Below are positions 26,078 to 30,196 of a stretch of 48,553 bases of DNA, piece after piece (the stretch's first letter is position 1; every line of letters starts with the position of its first letter). The stretch is from Atractiella rhizophila (lineage: Eukaryota): assembly GCA_021432655.1 (NCBI GenBank), contig MU271535.1, positions 1-48,553 on the forward strand, in the 5' to 3' direction. The notes beneath the pieces were generated by a model. The model saw only the letters and a list, made by a program, of their open reading frames with translations. It did not search any database and was not told the origin of the DNA. The position numbers and the translations under genes are program-made.

Positions 26078-27600
26078 CTAATGCTTCGCCCGCTTCTTGC
26101 TTCTTGCTCGTGACATTGACATCCCAGCCTCCACTTCATCATCATTTCGATCTTTGTCGTCCTCGTCCTCCCAAATCTCCCCACCTTTTCTCTTCCTTCC
26201 TCTCTTGCCACCATGTCCCTCATTTCCTTTCTCTCTTAACTCCCTGCCTGCCTCCCGACTGGCCTCTTCAACCCTCTCACGCAACATCATCATTTCTTCC
26301 TTTTTGTCCGCCCCTTTCACGCCTGGCCATTCCTCCATCTTCAGTCCTATCACGCCTTCTATCCGTTGGAACACCTCCACATCGTATTGTGTAACGAGAG
26401 TGATGGACTTTCCTGACCGTCCAGCTCGTGCTGTTCGTCCCACCCGATGCACATAATCTTTAGAATTTGTAGGGAGCGAGTAATTGATGACATAGTCAAC
26501 GGAAGGGATGTCCAATCCACGAGCTGCGACGTCGGTACAGACGAGGATGTGCTTGTTCCCCTTGGCGGCTGCTGATTTGAACTTATTCAGGGCGGCTAGA
26601 CGTGAGGACTGGGAGAGCTGTCCATGTAACGGAATGGAGGGGAAGGAGAGGATCCGGAGGAGGATGGAGAGCCGTTGGGAGTCGGCAACCGTGCGTGTGA
26701 AGATAATTATCAGGTGGGATGTGAGAGAAGTGAGAAGGTAGAGGAGATGCAGGTCTTTGTGGTTCACGGGAGTGAGAATATAGTATTGTTGAAGGGTGGA
26801 CACCGTCGAATACCTGCCTCCTAATCAGATGTGCTTTCAAGCTTGAACCCACGGTTGTCACTTACTTTGATGATACTTCAACTTTGACAGGGCTTTGAAG
26901 AGAAGCTCGTTGAAGCTTGCCTACTTTTGAAGTCATAGTTGCAGAAAAGAGGTATGTATGCCTATCTCGGGGCAAGAGTTTCAAGATTTTATCCAACTCG
27001 GCACCAAAGTCAAGCTCGAGTAGTCGATCAGCTTCGTCGAGGACCTTTTCTGACATTTGAACCCATTTCTTTGTCGCGCAATAAAATACACACCAGATAT
27101 TTGAGTTGGTTAAGGGAGAAACCTTTGGTGTGCTCCAAATGATCGATCAGCCGTCCAGGTGTAGCAATAATGATATGCGGTTTCTTAGCCAGCATGATGG
27201 CTTGCTGGACCGTGTCCATACCTCCCACAATTGTGCACGTCCTAACTCCTGCGCCATCTCCAAGAGACTGAAATACCTGTCCAATTTGGTATGCGAGCTC
27301 TCTGGTCGGTGCGATCACTACGCCGTAGAAAGGCTTTGGGTCTTCGTTGGTAAGAAGAGACTGCAAGATTGGAAGGGCGAACGCCAGAGTTTTGCCTGAT
27401 CCCGTCTGAGCTAGTCCAATGATATCCTTCCCTTCGAGAGCAAGAGGCAGGACACGAGCTTGAATTGGCGTGGGCACTGTGAGCTCGAGCTTCGCGAGTG
27501 CAGTCTGCAGATGCTCGTGCAGTTCGTACGACGTGAAGGGTTGGACCTCCTCCGCTGTCGAGTCCTGAGCTTTAGAAGTTGAAGCTTTACTCGAAGCCAT
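26078..27600 (-). CDS. RRP3: DEAD-box RNA helicase Rrp3 (DDX47)
   Basis: Q motif [78 protein letters not shown]. Confidence 0.96.
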
Positions 27601-27721
27601 CGTTAACGCGGGAACAGCCAGAATAAATTTTTGGCAGCGAAAGTCTTTAGGGTTAGGTCCTGTTCCCACTTTTTCTTTCATTTCACCTCACTCACAACAG
27701 CAACGACGACGATTGACTATT

Positions 27722-30196
27722 ATGTGGAAGCGCAACACATCTCAGCAAACTGGCTCAAACGAATCCCCTCTCGGTGCCCCTCGTCGCTGGGGTAACGCCA
27801 ACTCCAACAGCGCCACACCGGAAATCAAGGACGAGAAAGTAGACTCCCATCGTGGCACGGAACGTGAAAGGGACAGGTCAGACAGAGACTACAGGGACAG
27901 AGACCGCGATAGGGATAGGGATAGGGATAGACACAGAGATAGCAGGGATAGGGATAGGGGAGACAGGGACCGCCACAGGGACAGGGATAGCCACAGGGAC
28001 AAGGACAGGGACAGGGACAGAGAACATCGAGATCGTGATAGGAGAGGAGACCGACACCACGAGTCTCCTCGCGATACGGAACGAGTGAAGAGAGATGATG
28101 ACCCAATGCCCACTGTCCACGAACTGCCTCCGCCACCTGAACCAAATATGCAGCCTGGGGAGAAGAGGAGAAAGAGTAGATGGGGTGATTCAAAGCAAGG
28201 AGCAGGATCAATCGGCCCAACAGCTATTTTGAGCACAGCGGAAGCTATTGGGGAGACTCAGTTGGAGACATATGCTGGTGAGCTCTTCACGTCAAGGAGA
28301 ACAAATGGGTTTGGCGCTTTAAATTTCTTTTGTCTACGCGTCGCACAAACTTAAAGCTTTGAGTGTGAAAATCACAGACTTATGTGACGCCAAATGCGTT
28401 TGTAACAGCTAACTACTGATGTATTGGCTAACCATGCAAGAAAGCTGACATAGAGCGATGTCCTGTCTCTCGAGCTGTATTTTACTACGGTGCTGGTGGT
28501 AAGCGCCAATTGCTTCTTGCTTACCAGCACTGACGGTGTTGGACGCAGGAGTGTTTTGCTTTGTCTTGGTGAAACGTATTGGCGGATCGATGGTGTACAC
28601 TGTACCTGTCCTCCGAATTCTGCAAAATGCATTTCTTTTCAATCACATCTTGTACCAGCCGCATTTGCACTATCTCCAGGGCCATTGACTAACTGACTGG
28701 ACACTGACGCTGTTGCCTAGCCTCTGTACGTTTGGAAGAGATCTCGCGGATGTTACGAAGTGGCAACTACATTCCCCCTCCTCATCAGCGATCTCCTTCT
28801 CCTCCACCTACATATGATGGCCAAGGTCGGAGGACCAACATTCGCGAGGTTCGCTACCGTAAGCTTGACCTTTTCCTTTACCCTCACTTGCTTACACGCC
28901 GATGGAACCTAGGCAAGAAGCTCGAAGACGAAGCCATGCGCTTGGTGGACACTGCCATGAGAAAAGATCCTCAGTACAAGCCTCCTCCTGAGTTTATGCA
29001 AGCTCGTAAGAACGCCTGGGGCGGACGGGCTCAAGACAAGGTTTACATTCCTGTCAAGGAGTTTCCAGAAATCAATTTCTTCGGGTTCGTCACATTCTGT
29101 CTCCTTGGAAATCAGGTACTGAGCGCACATCCGCAGATTGTTGGTTGGGCCGAGAGGGCATTCGTTGAAGAATATGGAACGGCAGAGCGGCGCGAAGATC
29201 AGCATACGAGGAAAGGGGAGTGTGAAGGAAGGAAAGCAGCGTCCATTCGGGAACTTTCAAGACGACGAGGATGAAGATTTGCATTGTCTCATCACAGGGG
29301 ATTCCATGGATAAAGTGGAGGCTTGTGTCGCTCTAATTAACAAGGTCATAGAAACAGTGCGTGCTTCCCTTGTCTCGCGGCAAAGGCTCATGTTTCTAAT
29401 TAGGCGGCGAGTACGCCTGAAGGGGAGAACGATCACAAACGCAATCAGTTGAGAGAATTGGCGTTGCTAAACGGAACCTTGAGAGATGACGAGAACCAAG
29501 TTTGCCAGAATTGCGGAAATATTGGGCATAGAAAGTATGACTGCCCTGAGACCAAGGTCAGTCCCTAGATTTTCATTGCACCGTAGTTGAATTGATTGCC
29601 CTGTTTGTTAGAATTTTACTGCTGGCATCATTTGTCGCGTCTGTGGTGGAGCAGGACACATGGCTCGGTGTGTTGTCTGTTTTGCAGTTTGAGTGACCCC
29701 TGACTTTGTCTTAGTGATTGCACACAACGTCGTGGCCAGACCCAAGGCTATTCTGCTCCAATGGCCGCGCAGCCCACCCAATTCGACAGTGAATATGCAT
29801 CCCTCATGGCAGAACTAGGAGAAACAAGCCATGGTCCATCGGCACAAGTAGACGCCTACGGACAACCAGCTCCCCCTCAACCTCAGGAGAGTGGAATCGG
29901 ACCAAATGGAGAAAAGATTCCTCCGTGGAGAATTCCCAGTAACTGGTTAGTCAGTTCCCTGATTTGGAACAATTTGAAGGAACACATAACAGGCAATCCA
30001 ACAATACCCAGACTGGCGGAGGCACTGGCTATGGGCAACGAAACAATTATGCCATCCCTGGAGGATATACCTATAACAGCTACGGAGCACCAGTCGCTTC
30101 GTCGAGTGGAAGTGGGTACAATTGTAAGCTCGTCTAACGCTTCAGGTTTTACGCACTCAGTACGGCACAGATTATCATGTCCCCCCAACGATGTAA
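27722..30196 (+). CDS. MSL5: Branchpoint-binding protein BBP/SF1
   Basis: [36 protein letters not shown]2 ([56 protein letters not shown]); two zinc knuckles ([25 protein letters not shown]); [16 protein letters not shown]. 3' end approximate. Confidence 0.96.
27860..28050 (+). repeat. Arg-Asp dipeptide repeat (gatagg/gacagg hexamers) in the BBP N-terminus
   Basis: Runs of gatagg/gacagg encoding RDRDRD...; explains the spurious low-complexity ORFs in other frames. Confidence 0.9.
28278..28720 (+). promoter_or_regulatory. Long BBP intron with branchpoint-motif clusters and a hairpin-masked cryptic 5' splice site (candidate autoregulatory element)
   Basis: GTGAGC donor at 28278 and TAG acceptor at 28720 restore [17 protein letters not shown] at 28409, 28416, 28428, 28445, 28530, 28689, 28693, 28704. 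Hairpin 28488-28532 covers GTAAGC at 28499. Confidence 0.6.

Follow-up and report, generated by a model that had tools for sequence, protein, structure and literature searches.

Why should the gene for a protein that recognises the branch site carry one long intron filled with branch-site motifs? The question is raised by a stretch of Atractiella rhizophila DNA, contig MU271535.1 of assembly GCA_021432655.1, positions 1 to 48,553 (this whole 48,553-nt stretch is hereafter the window), which is ~49% G+C and fungal-looking. On its plus strand lies a nine-exon gene whose product carries the ULM, the SF1 helix-hairpin, KH-QUA2 and CCHC zinc knuckles in that order, as a member of the SF1/BBP family does. 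BBP/SF1 is the first factor to contact the branch site specifically, UACUAAC is bound by the KH-QUA2 domain of SF1, and we take BBP to be the known fungal reader of the CTRAY motif. One intron of the gene holds eight CTRAY motifs and is kept, minus a small nested intron, in a common transcript; arrays of the same motif recur elsewhere in the SF1 genes of other basidiomycetes. We see an even chance that these putative BBP-binding arrays mediate feedback on BBP expression through unproductive transcripts.

Length and position set this intron apart within its gene. It measures 443 nt, the eight remaining introns 47-55 nt (seven of the eight backed by RNA junctions), and translation and Pfam matches place it between the ULM exon and the exons encoding SPSP and KH-QUA2. 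An earlier note on this DNA (the original prediction) had given 443 nt against ~50 nt for the other introns, which is exact, and had put the intron at this place in the protein, which is borne out. The parts of the intron are listed below, the two arrays and the exon-like unit as read from the sequence, the joints as found in assembled contigs of four public runs (X1, X2, X3 and X19).

28278 to 28720, plus strand: outer intron, 443 nt, GTGAGC...CCTAG, eight CTRAY; its 28277/28721 joint is present in X1 and X3, with a loose end in X2
28408 to 28449, plus strand: mid-intron array GCTAAC, ACTGAT, GCTAAC, GCTGAC, with following AGs at 28439-40, 28443-44 and 28452-53
28454 to 28498, plus strand: exon-like unit of 45 nt, open and frame-keeping, preceding the GTAAGC donor at 28499; a candidate decoy exon
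28488 to 28532, plus strand: predicted hairpin pairing the nested donor GGUAAGC with GCUUACC; folding free energy -24 kcal/mol, z -3.77, 0/200 shuffles fold as well
28499 to 28548, plus strand: nested intron, 50 nt, GTAAGC...ACTGAC...CAG; spliced out with its flanks kept in X1 record 2 and X19 record 4
28688 to 28708, plus strand: acceptor-proximal array ACTAAC / ACTGAC / ACTGAC, with branch adenosines 28, 24 and 13 nt from the acceptor

The motif load of the outer intron is exceptional in the window. CTRAY pentamers start at 28409, 28416, 28428, 28445, 28530, 28689, 28693 and 28704, each a base after the hexamers of the original prediction, which had counted eight motifs against ~1.7 expected. 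We confirmed the count. The number expected in 443 nt is 1.3-1.6 when taken from the CTRAY rates of the window's two strands and 1.77 when taken from the composition of the intron (1.3-1.8 overall). Eight CTRAY were reached by 13 of 20,000 mononucleotide shuffles (P = 0.00065) and by 3 of 1,926 sliding 443-nt windows on both strands, the next best reaching six. Defining a motif cluster as at least three CTRAY within 41 nt, we found just two in the 48.5-kb window, both strands considered: one at 28409 (four motifs) and one at 28689 (three motifs), the minus strand having none. Shuffles put the probability of at least four CTRAY in 41 nt at 0.0003. A k-mer ranking of the intron against the rest of the window, made without reference to any motif, puts CTGAC, ACTGA and CTAAC at the head of the 5-mers and ACTGAC at the head of the 6-mers. 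Any CTRAY occurs in only four of the eight short introns, whose branch sites are weak, and the motif load is therefore not a habit of the gene.

The two arrays occupy different positions relative to the splice sites. No AG intervenes between the acceptor-proximal array and the acceptor at 28719-20, and these three motifs, which the original prediction had noted as a triple before the true acceptor, form the branchpoint region of the outer intron. The mid-intron cluster sits 270-310 nt from the same acceptor. With its GT...AG ends, near-acceptor branch sites and an exon-exon junction in RNA, the outer intron is of the spliceosomal U2 type.

Assembled RNA contigs reveal two processed forms. The canonical 28277/28721 joint occurs at depth 9.3 in X1 and 2.75 in X3, and in X2 a loose end at 28277 reads into the start of exon 2. 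The second joint, 28498/28549, removes the nested intron from contigs of X1 and X19 that run unbroken from exon 1 through 28278-28498. The clearest is X19 record 4, a 1,315-nt contig at depth 408 in which the nested intron is out, 28549-28720 is kept into exon 2 and all downstream introns are gone; X19 has no canonical-joint contig among those listed. X1 record 2 holds the same retained-flank, nested-spliced form at depth 4.24, against 9.3 for the canonical joint. Stretches of the outer intron without contig cover in X2 and X3 are uninformative either way. The retained-flank, nested-spliced transcript is thus common, and we do not claim that it dominates.

The retained transcript is unproductive. 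A TAA at ~28350, about 25 codons into the intron, closes the frame of exon 1, and the frame of exon 2 is closed by TAA and TGA inside the last motifs, at 28690-28708; X19 record 4 and X1 record 2 meet stops in both frames. Because stops close both frames, this form cannot encode the RNA-binding part of the protein. Its high depth would fit nuclear detention as well as alternative splicing coupled to nonsense-mediated decay (AS-NMD).

These contigs bear on part of what had been proposed. The original prediction held that excess BBP diverts splicing to internal acceptors or to retention and so removes the RNA-binding domain. Retained, stop-containing transcripts do occur, in two of the four runs, and they cannot encode that domain; joints from exon 1 to 28408, 28440 or 28453 were absent from the contigs of the four runs, which can miss rare forms. 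Exclusive use of the 28278-28720 junction, which it had named as counting against itself, does not hold, the 28498/28549 joint being used too. The motif that it placed at 28529 is indeed a CTRAY, and turns out to be the ordinary branchpoint of the 50-nt nested intron, which it had missed. Separately, X19 differs from the window at ~10 positions in the intron region (28613-28617, 28660, 28320-28378) and at none across 673 nt of downstream exons. Among the differences listed none falls within the motif arrays, a divergence too small to test constraint.

The centre of the intron resembles a decoy exon. The branch adenosine of the nested intron lies at 28533, 15 nt from its acceptor. In the decoy-exon-like unit at 28408-28504, the donor is used in RNA contigs and use of the acceptor was not seen there. 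We rejected an in-frame 15-residue insertion from the 45-nt unit: a run of 15 open codons has about an even chance of arising at random, and the contigs show no junction of this kind. With its 3' arm (28519-28529) complementary to the outer donor (28273-28283) too (inverted repeats I4 and I7), the hairpin at 28488-28532 is a possible switch between the nested and outer donors. Because GCTTACC is not enriched in the window (four matches against 3.4 expected), it is solely the hairpin z-score that carries this donor-masking idea. The intron as a whole folds in an ordinary way (z = -1.08; 16/100 shuffles fold as well). Rfam gave no match at the gathering threshold over the whole window, nor at E-values up to 5 over 28200-28800, and so no small nucleolar RNA or other known RNA family.

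The nested intron fits neither of two more elaborate schemes. A stwintron was rejected, since 221 nt separate the inner intron from the outer donor and 172 nt separate it from the outer acceptor, with the outer signals intact. Recursive splicing was rejected as well: the junction left after nested splicing, GGTG/GAGTGT, has no GTNNGY donor, and joining exon 1 to 28454 gives no GT. On reading the sequence between 28549 and 28680 we found no GTNNGY donor, and so no third inner intron.

Motif arrays recur in the SF1 genes of other basidiomycetes. Relative loci came from a scan with an alignment of 26 SF1 proteins; we took the best 80 of 156, ranked against another protein, a ranking that could have dropped closer relatives of the window. 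All 80 are about equally distant from the window, at ~50-90% protein identity per exon. Near-identical loci were collapsed to give 62 non-redundant basidiomycete SF1 loci, with the sense stretch of each running from 500 before to 900 after the protein match. The clusters are distributed as follows.

SF1 sense strand: 46 clusters in 160,133 bases
Antisense of the SF1 stretch: 1 cluster in 160,133 bases
Flanks, both strands: 5 clusters in 308,158 bases

A sense cluster is present in 32 of the 62 loci; among the 30 loci with full cover of the stretch, 19 have one.

The largest group lies in a different intron, the one directly upstream of the ULM exon. This pre-ULM intron is 150-206 nt long, and its 3' end carries 25 clusters in 23 loci (L008, L009, L011-L013, L015, L016, L020, L027, L028, L033, L036, L038, L040, L041, L047, L050, L053, L067, L069-L071 and L073). 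Arrays of this kind, in Agaricomycete-like SF1 genes, hold 3-6 CTRAY some 40-120 nt upstream of the ULM codons and 11-72 nt from the acceptor, and it is the acceptor-proximal type of array of the window that recurs in other fungi, at another intron. ACTAAC occurs 30 times in the pre-ULM introns against 0.35 expected from the flanks, as counted in 21 of 25 extracted introns (L008, L026, L038 and L069 were left out for wrong automatic boundaries; for L041 and L053 no donor was found at extraction). After L019, L048 and L077 had also been set aside, being short or of a different type, 18 of these introns were aligned, and they have three motif blocks in the conserved order ...ACTAAC..CTGACC..TACTAACCCTGAC..., with TACTAACCCTGAC as the last block.

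A third placement lies beyond the coding region. Downstream of the last protein match there are 19 clusters in 12 loci, and inspection of four of these loci found 3' untranslated region (3'UTR) arrays dense in CTAAC and CTGAC (L022:1850-2110, L024:3215-3470, L026:3260-3600 and L056:1940-2290). In L022 and L024 the array begins at the stop codon itself, a TAA embedded in TACTAAC; in L056 four motifs sit in one small C-terminal intron, in addition to the 3'UTR array. Arrays in a 3'UTR cannot serve splicing; they speak for a reading of these motifs as binding sites. We rejected a reading of the arrays as telomere repeats (TAACCC), many of them having no CCCT.

Retention recurs with the pre-ULM arrays. 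Twelve contigs are cDNA-like, as judged by a ULM-to-LNGTLR distance of 681-687 nt and hence an intron-free span, and in nine of these the landmarks on either side of the pre-ULM intron are both recognisable. It has been removed in five (L002, L003, L004, L007 and L010) and kept in four (L008, L009, L011 and L012), from which all other introns are gone. L009, for example, is 82% identical to the genomic locus L016, lacks the two ~54-nt introns of L016 and keeps the array intron. With four of nine cDNA-like relatives keeping the array intron, retention is not peculiar to the window's species.

Several observations weigh against an autoregulatory reading, beginning with conservation. Exon-1 peptides specific to the window, scanned against metagenome contigs, brought up no close relative in which conservation of this very intron could be followed. 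The distance from ULM to SPSP is 165-253 nt in all 66 measurable loci against 623 nt in the window. Eight loci have an intron of 60-71 nt at exactly the same codon position and without an array; in those of the eight that were measured, the entire stretch from ULM to SPSP contains 0-2 CTRAY. No counterpart of the mid-intron cluster turned up in the fetched relative loci, none of the three AGs that follow it is joined by a junction in the contigs of the four runs, and the long intron is not conserved at this distance. The orthologue comparison proposed in the original prediction thus came out divided, with no array at the same intron position and arrays elsewhere in SF1 transcripts. At our threshold a cluster is lacking from 30 of the 62 loci and from 11 of the 30 with full cover, the intron-less L021, L029 and L062 among them. 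The loci are phylogenetically related, so that the counts overstate the number of independent events, which come down to about three placements. On the RNA side, the evidence consists of assembled contigs, which lose rare forms and give no more than approximate depths; X1 and X2 are taken as RNA by guesswork alone and the type of X19 is unrecorded, although spliced joints show their RNA origin.

We favour autoregulation because motifs pile up on the sense strand of one gene at three non-homologous places. The motif load, the retention and the recurrence in distant fungi together fit an autoregulatory element. From these we infer that BBP binds the arrays and that the transcripts respond to its level. 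Arrays of CURAY, with ACUAAC as the best form, would bind the very protein that the gene encodes. At high BBP levels, several molecules would settle on the mid-intron cluster and on the acceptor-proximal triple, the former joining the 28453 AG and the 28499 donor in a decoy-exon-like unit. Arrays so occupied would hinder the hand-over to the U2 small nuclear ribonucleoprotein or tie up the outer splice sites; the outer intron would stay, and the transcript would be unproductive or held in the nucleus. Rutz and Seraphin are said to have found, in 2000, nuclear retention of pre-mRNA by yeast BBP. With BBP in short supply, branch sites close to the consensus would still pair with U2 and the intron would be removed, and the net effect would be negative feedback on the BBP level. 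Other basidiomycetes would appear to do likewise through a retained pre-ULM intron or 3'UTR arrays. The observation behind the original prediction is confirmed, and its interpretation is supported in part and broadened.

Could the motifs instead serve splicing itself? Redundant, near-consensus branch sites might ensure removal of a long intron in a short-intron, intron-definition fungus, or make splicing of the BBP gene independent of BBP; retention would then be a by-product of intron length, and the nested intron would merely shorten the substrate. Array position suits this account, since the recurrent type lies 11-72 nt from the acceptor and the window triple 13-28 nt from its own, where branch sites work; so does size, as introns with an array are long for their genes (150-206 nt, and 443 nt, against ~50 nt). 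Nested splicing has also been described in large introns of Cryptococcus neoformans, with 13 cases in the available part of that report (bioRxiv 10.1101/224170). Elsewhere the account fares less well. Flanking DNA of the 62 loci, 308 kb with both strands counted, contains 5 clusters, the rest of the window contains none, and long introns in general seem array-free, as far as flanks without annotated introns can tell. The mid-intron cluster is 270-310 nt from the acceptor, 3'UTR arrays are of no help to splicing, and retention is frequent despite strong sites. A pile-up of one motif on the sense strand of one gene, at three non-homologous places, is not easily put down to splicing needs alone; retention accompanies two of the intron-borne arrays, and arrays of one type are found in 3'UTRs. 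We regard this explanation as unlikely.

The intron might also be an evolutionary relic. An internal duplication, or a fusion of neighbouring introns with loss of small exons, could have left behind, without function today, the nested intron with its donor at 28499, the AG at 28453 and the surplus branch sites. A direct repeat, D2, matches 28528-28541 to 28702-28715 at 13 of 14 positions (CACTGACG.TGTTG), so that the 3' end of the nested intron (CACTGACGGTGTTG), branch site and downstream bases included, is a 13/14 copy of the 3' end of the outer intron; this hints at internal duplication within the outer intron. GCTGGTG is common to both donors, and the intron has a three-module look, the third module being without a GTNNGY donor. 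Duplication, however, accounts for one or two motifs and not for eight, and leaves unexplained both the non-homologous arrays of other lineages and the motif-block order conserved across 18 loci. A history of duplication or fusion is, to our mind, a distinctly improbable account of the arrays.

The arrays might also be regulatory and have another reader: a different KH/STAR-type protein, U2 snRNA pairing without splicing, or a factor acting on DNA; BBP would then be controlled by something other than itself. It is motif identity that suggests BBP as the binder, and some arrays contain CTAACCCTAAC, which resembles telomere-type repeats. Yet many arrays, including those of the window, L020 and L028 and of the 3'UTRs of L022, L024 and L026, have no CCCT, and the word they share is CTRAY. 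The 46:1 asymmetry between sense and antisense strands and the placement within transcripts fit an element read as RNA. We give a reader other than BBP a similarly small likelihood. Chance clustering in an ordinary long intron is hardly credible: the single-word P values in the window are modest (~1e-3 each before correction), against which stand the values of 0.00065 and 0.0003, the absence of any other cluster in 97 kb of strand and the independent recurrence in other SF1 genes.

Known systems offer partial parallels, here compared as far as the available parts of the cited sources describe them. The closest in its working is Quaking, a STAR protein with a KH-QUA2 fold whose own transcripts carry ACUAA-type elements for its autogenous regulation (Fagg et al. 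2017, PMC5695090). It shares with BBP the domain family, an almost identical motif and sites in its own pre-mRNA or mRNA. Quaking, however, is an animal regulator of alternative splicing and translation whose case was shown experimentally, whereas here a constitutive fungal factor is concerned, its sites double as branch sites and the case is read from sequence. Retention promoted by decoy exons, as in SF3B1 intron 4 and OGT (bioRxiv 10.1101/258897, PMC7373989), likewise involves a retained splicing-factor intron with an exon-like unit, which here would consist of the mid array with its AG, the 45 nt and the GTAAGC donor that is used. The mammalian introns exceed 1 kb against 443 nt, and in the window the contigs gave no sign of decoy-acceptor use and the unit is packed with the motif of the host protein. 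In AS-NMD autoregulation of splicing factors (for example PMC3967051, PMC9262138), a stop-containing isoform also arises from a non-coding part that carries the factor's own motif; the mechanism here would differ in acting at the branchpoint step, and decay, binding and dose response are proposals in this case.

Two fungal phenomena resemble the nested arrangement. In Cryptococcus (10.1101/224170) a small intron is likewise excised inside a ~400-nt intron of a basidiomycete, and the nested intron of the window is a further case of such splicing. Figure 4G of that report has only the full 391-nt intron detectable in polyA RNA, whereas here the nested-spliced, flank-keeping form is an abundant assembled transcript. 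Stwintrons (PMC5639578, PMC6616335) also place one U2-type intron inside another; there the inner intron interrupts the outer donor, branch site or acceptor, whereas here the outer signals are intact and used directly.

The remainder of the gene is that of a basidiomycete SF1. Its open reading frame begins with an ATG at 27722, and the exons nearest the intron, with exon 4, are the following.

27722 to 28277, plus strand: exon 1, with an Arg-Asp repeat region and the ULM RKSRWG, ending in codon phase 1; supported by translation and by an X1 contig unbroken over 27707-28277
28721 to 28858, plus strand: exon 2, SF1 helix-hairpin domain with the SPSP motif; Pfam SF1-HH, E = 1.1e-14
29137 to 29356, plus strand: exon 4, KH domain; Pfam KH-I_KHDC4-BBP over 29138-29356, E = 1.5e-16

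The SF1-HH match covers the exon segments 28723-28857 and 28915-29082, and a zf-CCHC match covers 29404-29556. Across the 28277/28721 junction, alignment of the protein to 40 fungal SF1 proteins needs no gap. When the KH exon was searched against a database, every named protein in the best 120 matches was basidiomycete, the top identity on that exon being 81%, and identity to basidiomycete SF1 proteins is 58-70% over 270-340 residues; at these values the searched protein collection holds no close relative.

Three further features were seen in or beside SF1 genes. The N-terminus encoded at 27860-28060 is a long Arg-Asp/His dipeptide repeat without counterpart in the aligned homologues, on which RNA contigs pile up (X19 depths >10,000), probably by cross-matching of the repeat. 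Upstream, a DEAD-box helicase gene on the minus strand (26078-27600) is divergent and starts ~120 nt from the SF1 start codon, so that a short promoter region would be common to both genes. A database SF1 protein, P0006, has a 20-residue insertion exactly at the intron position that follows YA, which looks like a small in-frame intron read through by a gene caller.

Basidiomycete SF1/BBP genes may share a homeostatic device, consisting of arrays of their product's own motif within their transcripts, with a placement that has shifted between lineages; we judge this generalisation possible and a shade short of evenly balanced. In Agaricomycete-like genes the array would lie in a retained pre-ULM intron, in Pucciniomycotina-like and some other genes in the 3'UTR, and in the window in a 443-nt composite intron after the ULM exon, with its decoy-exon-like unit, nested intron and donor-masking hairpin. 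The original prediction knew of no description of such an element. Our literature search, which covered few subscription-journal papers and included PMC6547761, PMC7433366, PMC4666396 and PMC3064769 in their available parts, found no account of SF1/BBP regulating itself or of its gene carrying branch-motif arrays, and the literature found does not describe how the BBP level is set. If the arrays are BBP sensors, they would provide a clean, sequence-defined feedback at the earliest step of spliceosome assembly, explain the one long, often retained intron of this gene in many fungi and offer a natural reporter for free BBP activity. If the device is indeed shared, the first factor to commit an intron to splicing would measure its own concentration on its own pre-mRNA.

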